Shown here: in pieces, positions 1,284-29,790 of the stretch
How the letters are laid out: the number at the start of each line of letters is the position of its first letter
Position numbering within the stretch: position 1 is the first letter of the stretch
Assembly: GCF_004010195.1 (NCBI RefSeq)
Contig: NC_057718.1
Location: 53,813,615-53,877,614, forward strand
From: Chiloscyllium plagiosum
Taxonomy: Eukaryota
Length of the DNA: 64,000 nt
Direction: 5' to 3'
Position numbers and translations under genes: made by a program
Notes under the pieces: generated by a model
Told to the model about the DNA's origin: nothing
Database searches by the model: none
What the model saw: only the letters and a program-made list of their open reading frames with translations

Positions 1284-1973
1284 CATAGTGAATGCTAAAC
1301 TCATAGAATATGAGCTCCCTGATTTGTGCTATTAATCTGGTCCAATCAGGGAGCACTGGCTCACAGATATGAACAGACGTGTTCCCCCTCCAACTCTATT
1401 TTGATTTAGTCCCTACCCTCCCCTTCACTGTTTTGATCACACTTGTGTCTCTCACTGTGTCTCACACCTACACACACACACCATGGGTGCTGGGGAAAAA
1501 TAAGTACTACCGCAGTTAGGCGGTAGTGTGGGGGTTTAATATATAGAATAAATAAATAAACGGAGAGAAGGGCATTGCTTAAAAAAAATGAACAGGCGTG
1601 TTTTTGATTTAGTCCCTGCCCTCCCCTTCACTGGTTGACCACACAGCATTGCCCTTTGTGAAGGGCACTGCTTGTCACTGGCCACTCGGGTGTTTCCTTT
1701 CTTCCTGGTGGTGGAAATTGAATAAAGATTCGTACACCTTATGTCTGTCACTGTGTCTCACACCTACACACACACACCATGGATGCTGGGGAAAAATAAG
1801 CACTACCGCAGTTAGGCGGTAGGGTGGGGGGTTAATAAAAAAAACAAAAAAAGAAATGAACAGACGTGTTAGAGATTCTGTTCACTCTGAGAGCTGGATC
1901 AGTGTCAAGGACTCTCCACACGTAAATAAAGGGTGACTTGGTAATGAGATACCGTCTTTGTAGAGTTGTTTCA
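1284..1973 (+). mobile_element. Solo LTR of the Gypsy family at 11822-17101, interrupted by non-LTR inserts
   Basis: Homologous to 11822-12055 (ctcatagaatatgag, ccaatcagggagc, gattctgttcactctgagag, aataaagggtgacttggt); ends ...tttca; 5-bp TSD GTTGC at 1279-1283 and 1974-1978. Confidence 0.9.
1383..1855 (+). mobile_element. Tandem pair of 5'-truncated non-LTR retrotransposon 3' ends (family A, probably Tx1 clade)
   Basis: Two related units (1383-1587, 1602-1855), each ending in a stem-loop and an A-rich tail, bounded by ATGAACAG(A/G)CGTGT at 1369-1382, 1588-1601 and 1856-1869; 1383-1409 reads SPSNSILI-stop, compatible with an ORF2 C-terminus. Confidence 0.85.
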
Positions 1974-7101: not shown

Positions 7102-9286
7102 TATCTAAAAGTTAAAGTTCTAAATTGGAGGAAGGCTAATTTTGACGGTATTAAGCAAGGACACTCAAAAGGGGCTGATGTTCACAGGTAAAGGGACAGC
7201 TGGAAAATGGGAAGCCTTCAAAAATGAGATAAAGAGAGCCCGAGACAATATGTTCCTGTTAGGGTGAAAGGCAAGACTGGTAGGTGTAGAGAATGCTGGA
7301 TGACTAAAGAAATTGAAGGTTTGGTTAAGGAAAAGAATGAAGCATGTGTCATGTACAGACAGCAGAGATTAAATGAATCCTTAGACATATAAAAGCAGTA
7401 GGAGCATATTTATCAGGGAAATGAGGAGGGCCAAAAGGGGACATAAGGTAGCTTTGGCAAGTAAAGTTAAGGAGAATCTCAAGGGGTTTTATAAATACAT
7501 TAAGGACAAAAGGGTAACTAGGGAGAGAATAGGGCCACTCAAAGATCAGCAAGGCAGCCTACGTGTGGAGCCACAGGAGATGAGGGAGATACTCAATGAG
7601 TATTTTGCGTCAGTGTTTACTGTGGAGAAGGACATGGAAGATATGGAATGTGGGGAAATAGATGGTGACATCTTGCAAAATGTGCATAATACAGAGGAGG
7701 AAATGCTGGATGTCTTGAAATGCATAAAGGTGGATAAATCCCTAGGACCTTATCAGGTGTACCCTAGAACTCTGTGGGAAGCTAAGGAGGTGATTGCTGG
7801 GCCTCTTGCTGAGATATTTGTATTATCAATAGTCACAGGTGAGATGCTGGATGACTGGAGATTGGCTAATGTGGTGCCATTGTTTAAGAAGAGTGGTAAC
7901 GACAAGCCAGGGAACTATAGACTGGTGAGTCTGACCTCAGTGGTAGGCAAGTTGTTGGAGGGAATCCTGAGGGACAGGATTTTCCTGTATTTGGAAAGGC
8001 AAGGACTGATTAGCGATAGTCAACATGGCTTTGTGCATAGGAAACTATGTCTCATTAGCTTGATTGAGTTTTTTAAGGAAGTAACGAAGAGGATTGCTGA
8101 GGGCAGAGTGGTGAACGTGATCTATATGGACTTCAATAAGGTGTTCGATAAAGGTTCCTATGGTAGACAGTTGGCAAGGTTAGATCACTTGGAATACAAG
8201 GAGAACTAGTCATTTAGATACAGAACTGGCTCAAAAGTAGAAGACAGAGGGTGTTGATAGAGGGTTGCCTTTCAGATTGGACGCCTGTGACTAGTAGTGT
8301 GTCACAAGGATCAGTGCCGGGTCCATTGCTTTTCATAATTTATATAAATGATTTGGATGTTAACATAGCAAGTATAGTTAGTAAGTTTGCAGATGACACC
8401 AAAATTGAAGGTGTAGTGGACAGCAAAGAAGGTTACTTCAGAGTACAACGGGCTCTTGATCAGATGGGCCAATGGACTGAGGATTGGCAGATGGAGTTTA
8501 ATGCAGATAAATGTGAGGTGCTGCATTTTGGAAAAGCAAATCAGGGCAGGACTTATACACTAAATGGTAAGGTCTTGGGGAGTATTGTTGAATAAAGAGA
8601 CCGAGGAGTGCAGGTTCATAGTTCTTTGCAAGTAGAGTTGCAGGTAGATGAGATAGTGAATTATGCTTTCCTTTATTGATCTGAGCATTGGGTATTGGAG
8701 TTGAGAGGTCATATTGCAGTTGTACAGGACATTAATTAGGCCGCTTTAGGAATATTTTGTGAAATTCTATTCTCCCACCTATCAGAGGGATGTTGTGAAA
8801 CTTGCAAGAGCTCAGAAAAAAATTACACAAAGCGTTTGAGGGTTTCAGCTTGGGAGAGGCTGAATAGGCTAGGGCTGTTTTCCCTGGAGCATCGGAGACT
8901 GAGCCATGAGCTTAGAGAGATTTCTAAAATCATGAGGAGCATGGATAGGGTAAATAGGTAAGGTTTTTTTTTCCTGAGGTGAGGGAGTCCAGAACTAGAG
9001 GACATAGGTTTAGGGGTGGGAAAGGAAAAATTTAAAAGAGACCTAAGGGGCAACTTTTTCATATAGAGGGTGGTACGTGAATGGAGCGAGCTGCCAGACG
9101 AAGTGGTGGAGGCTGGTACACTTACAACATTTAAAAGGGACCTGGATGGGTTGATGAATAGGAAGGATTTAGAGGGATATGGGCGAAGTGCTGGTAAATT
9201 TGACTAGATTAGTCTAGGATATCTGGTCAGCATAGACATGTTTGACAGAAGGATCTGTTTTCATGCTGTATATCTCTATGACTCTA
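7102..9286 (+). mobile_element. CR1 (HER1-like) LINE, 2.2-kb 5'-truncated copy with disrupted RT
   Basis: ORFs 7421-8209 and 8251-8595: DWRLANVVPLFKK...NYRLVSLTSVVGKLLE, QHGF, IYMDF.K.FD, QGSV.GPLLF, KFADDTK; tail ctatgactcta. Confidence 0.95.
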
Positions 9287-11821: not shown

Positions 11822-12055
11822 TGTAGTGACTATAACAAAGTCAGCTAGGTAGACCTCATAGAACATGAGTTCCCTTACTGGGGCTTAATCTATTCCAATC
11901 AGGGAGCCCTGGCTGACAGATATTACCAGGCGTGTCAGAGATTCTGCTCACTCTGAGAGTTGACTCTGAGGAAGTTGGATCAATGTCAAACACTATGCAA
12001 GCATAAATAAAGAGTGACTTGGTGATAGGTGACTGGTTTTTATGGAATTATTTTT
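11822..12055 (+). repeat. 5' LTR (uninterrupted, carries the empty target site)
   Basis: Starts tgtagtga; ccaatc 11895-11900; gatattaccaggcgtgt^cagagattc; aataaa 12006-12011. Confidence 0.9.
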
Positions 12056-12276
12056 GTGGAGGCAAAAGGAAAAACATTTGCTCCTGAAGAAATTTGCTTA
12101 CAATAGTCATCTTTGTGTTGAAGTAAGCATTGCTGGCACCATGCCATTATTTGGGAAGCTTGACTCGTTTTATTCTGCCTTCGAAGACTGGGCCCAGTAT
12201 GTGGAAAGAACATGTTATTATTTCCAGACAAATGACATTGGGGCAGATGAAAAGCAACAAGTAATTCTCCTGACAG

Positions 12277-12418
12277 TTATGCTTGCATAATGCTTGACAC
12301 TGATCCAGCTTCCTCAGAATCAACTCTCAGAGTGAGCAGAATCTCTGACACGCCTGTTCATATCTGTCAGTCAGGGCTCACTGATTGGAACAGATTAAGC
12401 CGCAATAAGGGAACTCAC
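12277..12418 (-). repeat. Inverted partial copy of the 5' LTR inside gag
   Basis: Reverse complement of ~11865-12006, including the empty site gatatgaacaggcgtgtcagagattc. Confidence 0.9.
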
Positions 12419-12523
12419 ATTGACCTGCAGCTATTTCAGTTATAAGGAGCCTAACGTTTTCTGAGGCATCAGGCACTAAAATCTTTAAAACGTTAAGGGA
12501 TTTAGTTAAGGATTATTATGACC

Positions 12524-13294
12524 AGCTTGTCTGTTTGCTCACTGAGCTGGTGGGTTTGTTTTCAGATGTTTTGTCACCATGCTAGGTAACATCATCAGTG
12601 AGCCTCCGGGGAAGTGTTGATGTTCTGCCCCGTTTGCTATTTATTTGTCTTGGTCTGTTGTGGTGAGTGGTATCATTTCCATTCTGTTTCTGAGAGATTG
12701 TTGAATAGGGTCTAAGTCTATAAGTTTGATAATGGAGTTCCAGTTTGAATGCCAGGTCTCGAGGAATTCCTGTTGTGTCTTTGTTTAGCCTGTCCCAGGA
12801 TGGATGTATTGTCCCAGTTAAACTAGTGTGCTTCTTTGTCAGTGTGAATGGCTACCAGTGATAACTGGCCATGCCTTTTGGTGGCTGTTTGGTGCTCATA
12901 TATCTAGGTTATTGAATTAGTGTCCATTATATTGGACAGATGAGCAGGAAACTAGCCACCAGGATATTTTTCTACTGGGACAATACATCCATCCTGGGAC
13001 AGGCCAAACAAAGATATGCACGGGTATTCCTAGAGGCCTGGCCTTCCCCCCATTTAGATTTAGAACCCATTTAGCAATCTCTCAGAAACAGAACTGGAAA
13101 TGATATCACCCACCACAACAAACCAAGACAGATAAATAGGAAGCAGGGCAGAACACCAACACTTCACCAGAGGTTCCCTGATGATGTGAACTAGCATGGG
13201 GACAAAACGTCTGAAAACAAACCCACTAGCTCAGTGAGCAAACAGACAAGCTGATCCACAACCTGAGCTACAAATCTTCTCCAAAATCTCGGTA
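12524..13294. mobile_element. PLE (Poseidon/Penelope-type) GIY-YIG C-terminus in inverted-repeat arrangement, nested in gag
   Basis: 12524-~12910 is the reverse complement of ~12925-13253; + arm encodes HYIGQ..RKLATR and WDNTSILGQAKQR.AR.FLEAW; decayed CTGATGA...(G)AAA motifs in both arms. Confidence 0.85.
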
Positions 13295-13934
13295 ACCCCA
13301 AACATCCTCTAATTCTGAGATACTATGGGCAATTTGAGAATCAGAGAAATCCGTGTTGAGATTTTTGATGAGGTTAAGACATGTGACAGAGGCATGTGAC
13401 TTTGGTTTAATCCTTAATGAGATGCTGAGAGACTGTTTGATATGTGGGACTGAAGATGTAACCATGCAAAAGCACCCAATAGCTGAAGCTCAACTGGACT
13501 TCACACAGGCACCACAACTGGCTTTATCATTGGAAAATGTGGCAAGTGGAGCATATGAGTTGCACAATATGCCAATGGAAGTGGACACCATTACTAGCGC
13601 AACTGACAACAGTTGAGCGAATGCAATGGCATCACTTGACTCAGGCCATATCCTGAATAAAGGGACTCGAGGTCAGCCTACAGTAAAACGCCAAAATAAG
13701 GCTAAGCCTCAGCCAAACAGTTAACATTTTCTTCAAGATCTGGGCCAGCAAAGCATTGTAGTTGCTACCAGTATGCAGACTTGAGACAGCAAAAGAGTTC
13801 CACTAGGCCTGAATTGAGTAAGTGAACTTGTACGCCGGGATCCATGAGAGTGCACACCTGGAAAGAACTCCTACATCTGGCTTGGAACTGTTAAATTGGT
13901 CAGCAACATCCAAATCAAAACCAATCAAAATAAA

Positions 13935-14151
13935 GTTAAAAATCACACAAAACCAGGTTATAGTCCAACAGGTTTAATTGGAAGCACACTAGCTTTTGGA
14001 GCAACGCTCCTTCATCAGGTGATAGTGGAGGGCTCAATCCTAACACAGAATTTATAGCAAAAATTTATAGTGTGATGTAACTGAAATTGTACATTGAAAA
14101 ATTGATTGTCTGTTAAGCCTTTCATCTGTTAGAATACAGTGATAGTTTCAC
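13935..14151 (-). mobile_element. PLE 3'-end fragment nested just upstream of the Gypsy protease
   Basis: Minus strand reads cctgatgaaggagcgttgctccaaaagct...ctggttttgtgtgattttt; 11-bp TSD ATCAAAATAAA at 13924-13934 and 14152-14162; same family as 28539-28655. Confidence 0.85.
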
Positions 14152-16044
14152 ATCAAAATAAACTTCTGGTTAAATGGTGACCCTGTTTTAGTGGGTTGAT
14201 ACCGCCGCAGTTGTGTCAGTGATTGCAGAACCAGTCTTTAACAAAATTTGCTCTGGACCCCAACCCTTAAATTTGTGTAAGACCTTGGCCTCCTCATATT
14301 GTATCAGGATAACATTGGCTTACAAATGGCCCAGTGGAGAAAAAAGCCCAACAATGTATGCTGCCTGGAATTTGGCTGATGCAGAGCACAAATATGCCCA
14401 GATAGAGAATGAAGATGTGATGGTCATCTTTGGTATGAGAAGGTTCCACTAATACTTTTAATAGTAAACATGTAATAGTAACAGACCACAAACCCCTGCT
14501 GGGGCTACTAAAAGAGGACAAAGCCATACCACCCATAGCCTCAAGTTGAATTCAGCAGTGGGCTCTCATTCTAACTGTGTACAATTCCAAGTTCAAACAC
14601 CGTCCGGAAGGCTAAATAGCAAATATGGATGCCTTGAGCTCCCTCCCACTGGCAGATACAATACTGGTGGTGCCATCACTGGAAGAGTCCATTCTAGTTT
14701 TAAACTTTCTGGACATCCTTCTAAGCATTCACTGACAATATCAGAATGTGGACGCAAAAAGATCCAGTTCTGACAAAACTAAACAGCTGGTGGTGATAGG
14801 GAAAACCTAAGAGCCTTCACTATCAGAATTGAAACCTTTATAGATCCGGAGAGAATGACAGACTGCCAGATCACTGTAGAGGATGGCATGAGTGATCATC
14901 CCAAGCAAAGGTTGCTGCCAGAAACTGGTTGAACTCCACTAGGGCTGTCCAAAATGAAGATGTTAGGGAGAGGTTATGTCTGGCAGCCGGGATTGTATGC
15001 AGACATAGCCATGTTGATGGGGCAGTGCCCAGGGTGCCAACAAGGACAAAAACTACTGCCAGCAGATCTCTCACATTCATAGTCCAGGTGAACCCTGGAC
15101 TCAGTTACACTTCAACTATGCCTGTCCTTTCATGGACTCAATGTTCTTAGCCATTGTGGATACCCATTTAGAGTCATTGGACATGCACAGAGTTCATCCA
15201 TCAAACATAGGGACAGTGACAGAAAACCTGCAAGCATTTTTTGCAATGCATAAAGAAGTGTTGGTCGCAGACAACGGGCTGAGAATTTGACTATTTCCTC
15301 GAGTCAACTGGCATTTGGCATAAAAGGACAGCTCCTTAATATCCATTGCCCAATGGTTTGGTGGAAAGAGTAGTCCAAACCTTGAAGGCAGGCTTAAAGA
15401 AACAGCCTGTAACTTCATTTGATACCAAATAATACCGGGTTCCTGTTTGATTATCAGACGACACCCTCATGGAACTACAGGGACATCTCCAGCAGACTCG
15501 CTAATGGGGAAAAGACCTGCACCAGGTTAAATCTGATCTTCCCAGACCTGGCTGGCAGTGTGAAACAGCCAGTACAGGACACAAGATTCCGAGAGAGACA
15601 GTTTACTTCAGGGGATGATGTTTGGTACAGGAACCACGGGAATGGCACTGCATGGGTAAGGGGCAAGGTCGCGCAAGGTCAGGTCCCATGACATACAATG
15701 TTCGGGTAGGTGAGATGGTACTGCGCAAGCATGTGGACCACATGAAAGCTGCAAACTCGCAAATGGGACAGGAGTGAAACATACCCAGCCCCTCAGAACA
15801 ACCAGAATGCTGTCAGAACCATGGGTTCTCCCCCACTGTCCAGCATCAAAGAAATCTCAGAATCTGAGATCAACACATTGAAGAAGATGATGAATTTCTT
15901 CCAAGACACACGAGGCTACAATCCAGTATATACTGCCTGTATCCAAGGCTGAGATGGAGGAACTAGACCCAATTGTGAAAATGCCCCAGGATAGACTGCA
16001 ATATAAAAAACAGGTCTACCTCCCTGGACTTAGAGGGGGCGGGA

Positions 16045-17101
16045 TATACCAATTGTAACAGGGTCAGCCAGGTGGACCTCATAGAAAATGGTCCAATCAA
16101 GGACCCCTGACTGGCAGATATAAAAGAGTGTAGGTGCAAAGGGGTGGGTGAGAGCCCAATGGTACTTGGGGCAAACTGAGAGCCAGAAGGTGGGCAGCCG
16201 TCCTCAGCGCTGTCACCCCGGGCAGGTACCGGGGCGGGCTTCTACTACCAGAGCAGTGCCACATAAATAGGACTGTTTACCGTGGTTTCCATAGCGACTT
16301 TGAATCACAGATTGCCTATCACAAGAGGAGACTAATCATTAAAACATTTATGTGAAACTGGGATTTGAGGTTTGTCCTCATGTCCCTGTAAACTGTTTGA
16401 ACGGTAGGGTTTAGGGCCTGGCTTTGCTGCTCCTCTCCCTTGTAAAATTGCTGTCTCTTGTATGCAGCTGTAAATGTAACTTTGTTGTAAACTGTTTTTG
16501 TAATTTGTTTAATAAAATATTTAAAAAAATAAACAGGAAAAATTAAAAAAAAAAGAGTGTACCCCAGGCAGGCACCAGGTGTTGAAAGGTGTGTCAGGGC
16601 GGACCAAGAACTGGAAGGGGCATGGGGTGGACCGTGAGCCGGAAGATGCATAGGGGTGGGCTGCCTTAGAGTGGCCGGAAGGTGGGAGGGACGGGGGGGG
16701 GCTTGATGTGTTTTCTAGGGGTCTGTATTGATGCACTGTTTCTTGTGTAATTGGACTGTCTTACATGTACAAGTGTCATTGTTACTGTTTTATAATGATT
16801 GAAGCTGGGATTTGACGTTTCTCATTTCCCTGAAAACTGGTTGAACGGTAGGGTTTGGGGCCTGGCTTTGCCATTCCTCTCCCGTGTAAACTTGCTGTTT
16901 CTCTGTATACAGCTGTAAATGTTAATTGTTTGTGTAAACTGTGAATTGTTTAATAAAATATGAAAAATAATAAAAGAGTGTCAAAGATTCTGCTTACTCT
17001 GAGAGCTGGGTCTGAGAAAACTGGACTAGTGTCAAGTACTGTGCATGTCAAAATAAAGGGTGACTTGGTGATGGGATACTGGCCTCTGTGGTGTTATCTC
17101 T
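16045..17101 (+). repeat. 3' LTR, interrupted by tandem non-LTR inserts
   Basis: Follows the polypurine tract; 16045-16131 and 16970-17101 align to the 5' LTR. Confidence 0.9.
16132..16969 (+). mobile_element. Two tandem 5'-truncated non-LTR 3' UTR inserts (family B, L1/Tx1-like)
   Basis: Units 16132-16550 and 16561-16969 share ~160 bp of 3' end (ctgggatttga...gaacggtagggttt.gggcctggctttgc...gtttaataaaata plus A tail) but differ 5' of it; bounded by (at)aaaagagtgt at 16120-16131, 16551-16560 and 16970-16981. Confidence 0.85.
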
Positions 17102-18124
17102 TTACAGTTATGGAAGGCCATTCCATCCATTGAGTTCATCTAACCCAACCACATCCCCAAAACTCCTTGATAGCTTTGACTTCATGATCTCACTAATTAT
17201 TTCAAACTATCACCCATTTAGTGTCTGTTACAAATAGCTTTTAACTTATATTTATGGTGTATTGTCCAATTGTACTAACTTACAGTGAAGTAATATTCTG
17301 GATTCACTTGCTGCGGTTTAATAATTTATATACACCAATGATGACTCTTAAACTTGTTCTGGAAATATAGAGCTTATTCTCCTTTAATCTTTTCTCATGC
17401 CTCTTCTATTTTTCATTATTCTTGTCATTATCAGCACATGCATGAGTTGTGCATATAGTCTTTTGAAGCATAGCAAATATATTTGGGCAAGATACTCCAG
17501 ATAAGGTCAGACCAATTATAATAATGACTTGGCATAACTTCATTAGACTGTTCTGGTTGTGTAGCCTAACACTTAGTTTGCATTTTCATTTGTTCTTGAT
17601 ATTTTGCCATCATTGAAAATGAAATGTCTAAAGTCACTTTCAGGTCTTTTCAAACTATTCCTGTGCAAACTCCCTTTGTTGTCTATATTGTTTATTCCAT
17701 TGTCTGATATATATTTGCATTTTAAACTTTAATATTAATTTTCAATATCTTTGCCAATTGCATAATTTGTTGAATATTTGTGCACCTTTGAAATTGCATC
17801 TTCTGCACCGACTATAGATTAATGGACAGAAAGTTAAGAGAACTCTTTTCTGACATACATTTCCTCTGGCTGATGTTTGTTGCATTTGCTGTATCAGAAC
17901 TGATTCCAGCTAAATGCAGAACCCAAGATAATTTTTTTTTGAGTTTCCTATTTTTATCCAGTGAATTAAAAGCAATATACTGAGGATGCTACAAATTAGA
18001 AATAAAAATTGAAAATTATGGGTAACATTCAGCCGGTCAGGAAGGATCTGTGAAAGGAGTTTCAGTTCAATGATCATTTATCAGAAATGATCCAGTAACC
18101 CTCAAGCCAACCTGAAAAAAAGGT

Positions 18125-27989: not shown

Positions 27990-29790
27990 TTGGGGATTGC
28001 TTTTAAGAAGGTGGTTAAGTCAGACAGTGTGATTGAACTTGTCTGTTCCTAAGCAGCTCAATCCCTAATAGCCGTCTTGACTCTGGAGTAGCTAGTTGTT
28101 CACTTTGCTATCTGGCAATCTGATTAAATATATTTGCAAATACTCCCGTTGTCTGTCTCTCATTATATTGCTTCTGAGTAGTGTAGACATTTCAGTTGCT
28201 GCCTCTTCACTTGCACTTCATCTTGAACTTTGTTGCTGCTTGGAATCTAAACTCTCTCCAGCTTTGTTGGCACTGGAAAACATTCCAACCACATTCCAAC
28301 CAGTGCAGTCCCAGCTTTCCATCAGTATGAAATGACTGTTTTAGTGCAGCATGATTAACCTGTGGATACCTTTTCTGAATGTTCCACTGTGAAAATATGG
28401 AGTCCAGCAACATTTTCTATTAGCGTTTCCTTGACCTTTGCTCATTTTTCTCTTCTGATTTTTGAATGATCTTGAGAGCAAAACATGCCTTTCTTCTCAT
28501 GTGTAAAGATGGTTAGTTCTGAAGTATATAATTCCTGGGTTAAAAATCACACAACACCAGGTTATAGTCCAACAGGTTTAATTGGAAGACTAACACCTGG
28601 TGTTGTATGATTTTTAACTTTGTACACCCTAGTCCAACATCGGCATCTCCAAATCATATAATTCCTGGTAATTGGTTTCCTCTATGTTGGAGAATTGCTT
28701 GTTGCCTTTAATGTTGACCATGATGCTCCTTAGACAATACAGTTGAACATCTGTCTCTAGTAAGCCGTGTTTTGTCAATGAAGGATCATTAACTGATGAA
28801 ATGTTGATGCTTCCTCCCATGTCTCAACTCCTAAATGTTTGATCTGGCCACTAAAAATGCCCAGAAAATCTTTGGATTCATCTTCTTCTGGAAACTACCT
28901 GATTTATCTCTTTGAGTGGATAGTTCCTTTTTATGTTTGCTCTTCTGTGGCTGTGCCTTGCTTAAGCACATTTTCTTACATTAATAGCATTTTGTTGTTA
29001 AAAACTGTGCACTGCTCATGCCTGTGAGATTTCCTTTTTCCATACAGACAAGTTTAGCAAATGTTGGAGCCTACCAATTTACACACCTCTGGTGTCATAA
29101 TCTGGTATCTACCTGCTGCATTGGTTTTTCTTTTGTACATTTTTCATGGTTTTGAACTTATCTGCCTAGTTTTATCTTCCCCTCTTAGAATTGTTCTGTT
29201 TTGTTTCCAGAGTTCTTGCTTCACTCACCATCTGAATGGCTTTCTCGAAACTAGGTTGTCTTTAGACTGCAAACAAAAAGACAAATTATTATCGCTAATG
29301 TCAGCAGCTCTCCAACCTTTAATGAATTCTAATTTTACATCACCATCACTCCATGAACCTATAGAGATCATCAAGGATTCTTTAGATTGTTCCATTCTTT
29401 CATTGAATCTTGCTCTTTCAGCAAATTTATTTCTTCTAAAGTTGACATAATGCCAAAGGTTTTCAAAGGGCTTATCTGATGCTTCACCTATCCATTGGTA
29501 AGGAATAATATCATCTATTATACTTCCAATTGTCTGTCAAAATGTATTTACTTTTTGAACTTCTGTTTTCATGTCCATATTAGAAGCTATCCTTTACTTC
29601 AATAATTGTTTTCTGCAGGATATCCAATTTTGTATGATATTTAAGTTTCAATTATACTGGCACACCAGCCTTTGTCAGATCAGATACTGCAATTACTAAT
29701 GACAGCGTACCCCTCAAACCTGCTGGTAACACTCAATACAGAAAAATGTTTCAGAGAATGACACAGAAAGCATTTCAGATCTGACAGACA
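27990..29790 (-). mobile_element. Highly decayed Gypsy-type gag/pol remnant
   Basis: Minus strand ~29600-29200 reads RIAS...VQKVNTF..IG.I.DDI...RRNKFAERARFNER....ES....DLYR...LQSKDNL..EKAIQM in broken frames, a Gypsy gag pattern; Cys/His knuckle-like remnant ~28960-29030. Confidence 0.65.
28539..28655. mobile_element. Miniature PLE-terminus insertion with internal inverted repeat
   Basis: gttaaaaatcacacaacaccaggt / acctggtgttgtatgatttttaac; 13-bp TSD ATATAATTCCTGG at 28526-28538 and 28656-28668. Confidence 0.85.

Follow-up and report, generated by a model that had tools for sequence, protein, structure and literature searches.

We analysed a 64,000-nt stretch of the Chiloscyllium plagiosum genome (contig NC_057718.1; hereafter the window), in which copies of one long terminal repeat (LTR) family are interrupted by A-tailed units of two families, here called A and B. 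The LTR copies of the window and the units that they hold are listed below.

1298..1960, plus strand: further LTR of the same family, filled at the shared site by two units of family A (1383-1587 and 1602-1855)
11822..12054, plus strand: 5' LTR; its homologous site (gcgtgt^cagagattc, between 11935 and 11936) is empty
12293..12421, minus strand: inverted LTR fragment (reference positions 41-171, 83%), site uninterrupted
16043..16131 (start approximate), plus strand: U3 portion of the 3' LTR, containing a diverged CCAAT/GGCTGAC block and a TATA-like gatataaaag; a purine-rich tract lies before it
16120..16131, plus strand: target copy 1, ataaaagagtgt, abutting U3; equivalent to positions 103-116 of the reference LTR, the stretch that filled LTRs carry in duplicate
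16132..16550, plus strand: family-B unit 1, a young rearranged variant, with AATAAA at 16511-16516 and an A-rich tail
16551..16560, plus strand: target copy 2, aaaagagtgt, as read from the window sequence
16561..16969, plus strand: family-B unit 2, canonical but 5'-truncated and either older or diverged, with AATAAA at 16952-16957 and an A-rich tail
16970..16981, plus strand: target copy 3, ataaaagagtgt, abutting R, which opens with caaagattctgc
16982..17106, plus strand: R/U5 part of the 3' LTR, with aaataaagggtgacttgg near 17053; reference LTR positions 95-236 align to 16961-17106

The 3' LTR therefore reads, in order, U3 (ending in ...ggcagat), ATAAAAGAGTGT, unit 1, AAAAGAGTGT, unit 2, ATAAAAGAGTGT and the caaagattctgc of R, and both units have the same sense as the LTR. 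The initial annotation had described two A-tailed units bounded by three copies of (at)aaaagagtgt at this place, and all of its coordinates agree with the sequence. The 3' end that it regarded as shared by the two units corresponds to 177 nt at 81% identity (blastn), with an 82-nt core at 88%, and the 5' parts are dissimilar as it had stated, yet both units belong to family B. Unit 2 aligns to the canonical B copy in locus L015 with 78% identity over 387 nt (blastn). Unit 1 is composite: positions 16132-16240 are a 109-nt piece of the GC-rich repeats of B (97% identical to the copy in L020), positions 16240-16347 are a foreign segment of ~107 nt (segment C), which elsewhere occurs only in L023, joined likewise, and positions 16351-16518 are the B 3' end, 98% identical to L015 and 96-100% identical to 40 other copies. 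In the tail of this unit, ataaacagg (16529-16537) is the canonical form of the target and not the local shortened form. Since this tail carries the ATAAACAGG of another LTR, the unit 1 RNA came from a copy in another LTR.

The limited similarity of the two units, together with their unlike 5' parts, supports two successive and independent insertions, as the annotation had proposed, and argues against a tandem duplication. The annotation had also concluded that both insertions followed the integration of the provirus, the 5' LTR of the same provirus being empty. That LTR is indeed empty at the homologous site, but its assignment to the same provirus was not borne out: the 5' LTR and the 3' LTR (~16043-17106) share 74% identity and differ by a 25-bp indel, whereas unrelated copies of the family are 75-89% alike, so that the two LTRs are no closer to each other than random family members, and the 5-mers flanking them differ, leaving no matching flanking duplication. 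The internal region (12040-16050) is decayed, without an ORF of more than 101 aa and with only a sub-threshold RT_RNaseH match at 14192-14449. With this LTR pair unsupported, a common provirus cannot be used to date the insertions. Their relative age comes instead from unit 1, which is young in comparison with the LTR family: the 96-100% identity of its 3' end to 40 copies, as compared with 75-89% among LTR copies, supports the view that the insertions are younger than the LTR. The older B copy (unit 2) would have entered this LTR first and the young variant (unit 1) later.

The class of the LTR element itself can be assigned only loosely; an integrase-like remnant was read in L006. The ORFs at 2116-5092 of L031 were considered as genes of the LTR element and rejected, because they belong to another nested LINE. 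In the window, a 50-nt stretch at 13935-13984 is 98% identical to that at 28539-28588; both are parts of an abundant SINE-like repeat, which also interrupts several LTR loci.

To place the window in a wider context, the 3.56-Gb assembly was searched with a conserved U3 block, TCCAATCAGGGAGCCCTGGCTGACAGATA, which gave 6862 matches at two or fewer mismatches and none with the reversed control. Among the first 30 LTRs with the exact U3 motif, in genome order, 18 continue into R, and the other 12 are broken 12-14 nt downstream of GATA. When these 30 loci were aligned to a 236-bp reference LTR taken from L055, the filled copies were found to break at reference positions 103-116 and to resume at 103-110, corresponding to a duplication of 12-14 bp, and the other breakpoints were few and scattered. 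A second sample was drawn with an 18-mer (2585 matches), and its first 100 rows in genome order were classed by eye; as in all of the by-eye classifications below, ~50 flanking bases are visible in each row. About 19 of these rows are filled at the site (11 with family A, one with a diverged A-like sequence, two with family B, four with inserts of unassigned family and one with a bare target duplication), one has another element nearby, four are interrupted within the next ~48 nt and 76 are empty. An even spread of nested insertions along the LTR, which the annotation had set against its own proposal, is thus not what is found, with 12 of 30 copies breaking at 103-116 in one sample and ~19 of 100 filled at the site, as against four in the next ~48 nt, in the other.

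The insertions therefore prefer one position of the LTR, and the form of the inserts is regular. The 5' junction is constant to the single nucleotide, behind GTGT or GATT, and antisense inserts were not seen among the ~31 filled sites of both LTR samples. The duplicated bases vary widely from one filled site to the next (L005 has ATAATCAAGAAATTT and L006 has ACAAGCACAAGCTTT, for instance), which counts against the targeting mechanism preferred below. The points of 5' truncation vary from copy to copy across filled LTRs, indicating that these are independent insertion events. An A-rich 3' tail, variable 5' truncation, a target-site duplication and a single orientation are all present, as expected of target-primed reverse transcription (TPRT). 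The same point is filled in the LTR at 1298-1960 of the window by two A units, bounded by atgaacag(a/g)cgtgt target copies at 1369-1382, 1588-1601 and 1856-1869, and the annotation was correct in regarding the junction and orientation of the B units as those of family A.

These regularities bear on a simpler explanation, namely that A/T-rich TATA boxes in open chromatin are preferred in a generic, L1-like way without sequence-specific targeting. The putative bottom-strand nick, TTTAT/AT, does resemble the L1 consensus. However, ~67-75 of each 100 sampled 3' ends of the two families (see below) lie at a site that is present a few thousand times in 3.56 Gb, and a junction fixed to the nucleotide, with no antisense insert among ~31 filled sites, is difficult to reconcile with a generic preference, which we regard as scarcely credible.

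Several other sequences were observed at or near the site. A bare target duplication without an insert is present at C2:18465774 and C18:17598848 (ATAAACAGGAGTGTCA then ATAAACAGGATTAT CAGAGG). At C2:22658340, the family-A insert is displaced 13 nt downstream from the usual position (it follows CAGAGGTTCTGTT) and comes close to an initiator-like TCACTCT. In L048 (oriented 1540-1640), the site holds a 5'-truncated R piece of the LTR that ends at its own AAATAAAG and is followed by poly(A); this is an LTR transcript copied into another LTR by LINE machinery. In L056 (oriented ~1880-2700), the same site holds a ~430-nt unrelated poly(A) retrocopy and also an inverted family-A piece joined to a sense A 3' end, an arrangement that is twin-priming-like. 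Within the stack of L031, positions 8385-8405 are a mini-insert of ~18 nt, GTGCTCGCTTCGGCGAGG, with poly(A), which has a putative resemblance to the 5' stem of U6 snRNA.

Stacks of units at the site, as in the window, were also found in L005, L031, L035, L052 and L056. They could in principle have arisen at the DNA level, by copying of a filled LTR through replication or segmental duplication, or by unequal crossing-over between direct repeats. Units with the same 5' end do recur within single stacks: in L005 (~230-1700), four B units start at the same internal base, AGCC(A/G)TCCTCAGCGC, with internal deletions that differ, and same-start units are present in L056, L035 and L061 too. Those in L005, L035 and L056 are not predicted by simple independent truncated insertions. 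In addition, the shortened target variant of the window, which the annotation had taken as private to this LTR, is not strictly so, since TAAAAGAGTGT joined to the same B start, AGGTGCAAAGG, is common to the window and L013, which lies on another chromosome. The reverse complement of L013 reads ...AAAAAAAATAAAAGAGTGT|AGGTGCAAAGGGG... at ~1000-1700, that is, the window variant with the unit 1 start, and its 3' flank, AAACAGGAGATT, differs; a leader from an LTR-driven source copy and recombination between stacks are both candidates for this pair. A subfamily carrying the unit 1 leader was considered and dropped, as GTAGGTGCAAAGGGGTGGGTGAG with 50 upstream bases matched the window only, in a scan whose pattern could not have A as its first base and which, presumably for this reason, missed the L013 copy. 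Against an origin at the DNA level, this junction scan matched the window alone within that restriction, the two units of the window differ in their 5' ends and are only 81% alike, and truncation points and duplicated bases all differ across LTRs. DNA-level events may account for part of the growth of stacks but leave the hot spot unexplained, and as a general explanation they are very improbable.

Family A contains recognisable coding sequence. The copy in L093 has an endonuclease and a reverse transcriptase (RT), broken by frameshifts and stops, and no intact copy was seen among the family-A copies examined. L073 has an open C-terminal ORF2 piece of 431 aa with a C-x2-C-x7-H-x4-C string; the copy is 5'-truncated, and the upstream locus L092, considered as further LINE sequence, was rejected. 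A Pfam search gave an RVT_1 match for family A, a zf-RVT match of 23.4 bits, below the cut-off of 27.5, and no endonuclease match on the degenerate L093 copy. A 163-aa RT piece showed 68% identity over 94% of its length to YTX2_XENLA (the Xenopus 'Transposon TX1 149 kDa protein'), and its search returned 724 matches, mostly turtle ORF2s. The endonuclease is 41% identical over 210 aa to the Xenopus Tx1 ORF2 and co-linear with its residues 1-209, and human L1 ORF2p, the protein of solved structure, gave only 65 bits against family A. Judged from these sequence comparisons, family A can be assigned to the Tx1 clade of the L1 superfamily of LINEs.

A pattern search for family-A 3' ends gave 2695 matches, the first 100 of which, in genome order, were classed by eye: ~75 are followed by the target motif, six lie clearly elsewhere, 13 have tails too long to be classed and six are ambiguous. 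A share of ~75/100 flanks of one sequence type, by eye, is above the >20% by which target specificity is recognised in the relevant passage of PMC4494074.

Two further A-related loci were noted. In L041, a diverged A-like 3' end occupies the same site, with only 47 nt alignable to A at 81%. L061/L062 (oriented ~1900-2080) contains an A copy, partly masked by N, in which a presumably 28S-rRNA-like 5' fragment stands between two ORF2 pieces; the copy looks like a template-switch chimera. An earlier reading of the L061 insert as starting with rDNA spacer was dropped, because the stretch is ORF2 coding sequence in which only a short 28S-like piece is embedded.

Family B is of a different nature. 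It is ~1.9 kb long, with GC-rich repeats of ~110 bp upstream of the 3' end and its own AATAAA; runs of N mask parts of the long copies at several loci. In the long copies L015, L020 and L013, neither a sense ORF of more than 109 aa nor an RT was found, and we consider B to be non-coding on this ground. A blastn comparison of A with B gave a best E of 2.4, with no shared sequence including the 3' tail, in agreement with the annotation, which had seen no similarity between the families. Searches of the B copies L015, L020 and L001 gave neither an Rfam family at gathering score nor a tRNA, and B lacks the tRNA, 7SL or 5S head with an internal pol III promoter that defines a SINE. Its first ~45 nt resemble instead the start of R of one LTR subfamily (with the R of L014 the score is 46, and shuffled sequences reach 34 at most), and the score of the B head against the R of the main LTR subfamily is within that of shuffles. 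An exact 27-mer of the B 3' end matched 175 times, and the first 100 rows in genome order were classed by eye. About 67 of them continue into the target motif followed by R or by another A or B unit, eight have tails with a copied LTR target but end elsewhere, four are ambiguous and 21 lie elsewhere, where copies bear ordinary duplications (e.g. L017, L021 and L025). The annotation had considered that B copies might prove to lie mostly outside this LTR family, which is not so with ~67/100 sampled 3' ends at the LTR site; this share of one sequence type, by eye, likewise exceeds the >20% given in that passage of PMC4494074. The off-target share is higher for B (~21-25%) than for A (~7%).

The B heads are placed as regularly as the 3' ends. 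All 63 exact matches to the B head are directly preceded by the target motif; upstream of it, 10 have U3 directly, ~23 a B tail and at least four an A tail, and three heads in a non-LTR context still carry the target motif. A and B units are mixed within stacks, in L005 and in at least 15 of the 100 B 3'-end rows. The possibility that B is a non-autonomous element of the LTR-LTR type was dropped, since B tails in stacks precede 12-14 bases of U3 and never a whole U3.

On these data, one can ask whether B might be the 3' end of another, likewise autonomous LINE lineage that encodes a separate endonuclease and has kept the same target. The absence of common sequence between A and B would suit such a lineage, and the third, diverged A-like 3' end in L041 suggests that the site may serve several LINE lineages. 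However, in the long B copies the R-like head is followed by ~1.9 kb in which the sense ORFs do not exceed 109 aa, all 63 B heads have the target motif and not coding sequence directly before them, and an RT-bearing copy with a B tail was seen in 0 of 93 loci. We therefore regard a second autonomous lineage as unlikely, if not negligibly so. The conclusion of the annotation that two diverged lineages share an old, conserved specificity loses much of its force with a B that has neither a sense ORF of more than 109 aa nor an RT; L041 gives limited support for some depth.

Our preferred reading, which we hold to be probable, is that Tx1 machinery, that of family A, uses one LTR site and also moves B in trans, and that the serial insertions form a stack at the landing site. 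Family A would supply an apurinic-type endonuclease and an RT for TPRT at one place in the ~236-bp LTR. The bottom strand would be nicked in the A/T-rich gatATAAAc box, where a T-run would prime on the A-rich RNA tail, and the top strand would be cut 12-14 bp downstream, after GTGT (or GATT) and before the CAGAG of R. Staggered cuts of this kind should give inserts in the sense orientation, variably 5'-truncated and flanked by a 12-14-bp duplication, and because the duplication rebuilds the site on both sides, the insertion could be repeated, hence the stacks. The B RNA would be moved by the same or closely related Tx1 machinery, as suggested by the common junction and duplication length, the mixed A/B stacks and the more frequent off-target position of B. 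Without a sense ORF longer than 109 aa or an RT, B is most likely a passenger of Tx1 machinery, and in that case there would be one specificity, not two. This reading assumes that the A protein recognises B RNA although the 3' ends of A and B are unrelated; given such unrelated tails, B could be mobilised only in the relaxed, poly(A)-dependent manner. The higher off-target share of B fits trans-mobilisation and would also fit a different partner.

The tails carry information on the source copies. Tails of the types ATAAACAGG(A)n and GAAACAGGAGTGTCA(A)n, as in unit 1 of the window, are found in other copies. Of a poly(A) run with the same species label, presumably RNA, ~2% was inspected, and 24 reads fell on the B 3' end, mostly as first mates on the minus strand; five of these pass from the B 3' end into AAATATAAATAGG and then into A-runs, a count that could include internal priming. 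A second run placed no reads, and the DNA contigs of a further one did not span the locus. Read-through tails are thus present in both DNA and RNA, and since the tails carry copied target, the source copies sit in LTR sites.

Such tails also invite the idea of RNA homing, in which the read-through 3' end anneals to the nicked LTR DNA and steers reverse transcription, as proposed for elements of the R1/R2 type. ATAAACAGG or longer pieces of the target are present in many tails, RNA reads end in AAATATAAATAGG with poly(A), and many B copies join AATAAAAT(AATAT) straight to the target without a long A-run, all of which would be expected under homing. However, most of the carried-over targets are followed by poly(A) and then by the local copy of the target, which indicates priming on the A-run and not on the carried-over bases. 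Moreover, eight of the 100 B rows have target-carrying tails and sit outside LTRs, and a 5' junction held constant behind GTGT requires that the top strand be cut at a defined position. The endonuclease may gain specificity from annealing, but annealing cannot take its place, and homing by RNA as the main determinant appears quite unlikely.

Why this site is used is a separate question, and we can offer a possible answer only tentatively. The site follows a TATA-like box by 13-14 nt and, as we read the sequence, precedes an initiator-like TCACTCT by ~14 nt. It might have been chosen for its position in the core promoter of the LTR: promoter-less A and B copies that land there would be transcribed by U3, their transcripts would be terminated by their own AATAAA within the first few bases of the rebuilt target, and they would home to the next LTR, and B would be an LTR-born RNA that lives on this cycle and silences the LTR element. 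The use of the LTR promoter by inserted units, which we infer, is hinted at by the position of all 63 B heads behind the target motif (10 behind U3 and three outside LTRs) and by the same-start units within stacks. Further hints are the occurrence in L013 of the window target variant together with the same B start, and the location of source copies in LTR sites. If true, this reading would explain how 5'-truncated copies devoid of a promoter stay active.

On the targeting reading that we prefer, the system is a well-resolved case of a vertebrate LINE that nests at a single nucleotide of another retrotransposon, over thousands of events and with an unrelated non-coding passenger. Systems of this kind show by what means mobile elements reach 'safe' insertion points and non-autonomous RNAs exploit the targeting apparatus of another element, and they are studied as natural models for site-directed DNA insertion. 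For annotation, tandem A-tailed blocks in such LTRs should be taken as serial insertions and not as satellites or LTR variants.

A full-text literature search, at the level of the listed results, found no description of such a system in cartilaginous fish. The targeting habit as such is already known for the Tx1 group, in which many families are target-specific (Kojima 2015, PMC4494074; here and below cited for individual passages), and our addition is family B, which is non-coding and unrelated to A, has a head resembling LTR R and follows the same rule. The nearest parallels are the crocodilian Tx1 families Tx1-8_Crp and Tx1-4_AMi, which prefer specific LTR retrotransposons (PMC4494074). Family A, with ~75/100 sampled 3' ends at the LTR site, is alike in this preference and in its clade; as far as the cited passages go, it is unlike them in that the position is mapped here to the nucleotide, between the TATA-like box and R, and that the host belongs to another vertebrate lineage. 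For the passenger, the closest case is SINEU-3, which has the target of Tx1-Mar and is taken as trans-mobilised (PMC4494074). Like B on the site of A with its LTR-R-like head, SINEU-3 is a non-autonomous element on a strict Tx1 target with a target-linked head; in that system, however, a Mariner DNA transposon serves as the target and U2 snRNA as the head, and B, at ~1.9 kb, with its GC-rich ~110-bp repeats and its own AATAAA, is not SINE-sized. Tx1L of Xenopus laevis is the source of the closest named protein (RT 68%, endonuclease 41%) and also a LINE that targets a mobile element, but its target, according to the same source, is Tx1D, a piggyBac-type non-autonomous DNA transposon, and not an LTR (PMC4494074). 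Transcription from the flanking target is regarded there as a plausible strategy (PMC4494074). R2 and R1 in rRNA genes resemble the present system in their strict site, in read-through RNA ends that possibly aid targeting and, if the LTR promoter is used here, in their dependence on transcription of the target. R2 differs in its restriction-like endonuclease and its target of the single-copy-gene type, whereas the system described here would use an apurinic-type endonuclease and has poly(A) tails and 12-14-bp duplications.
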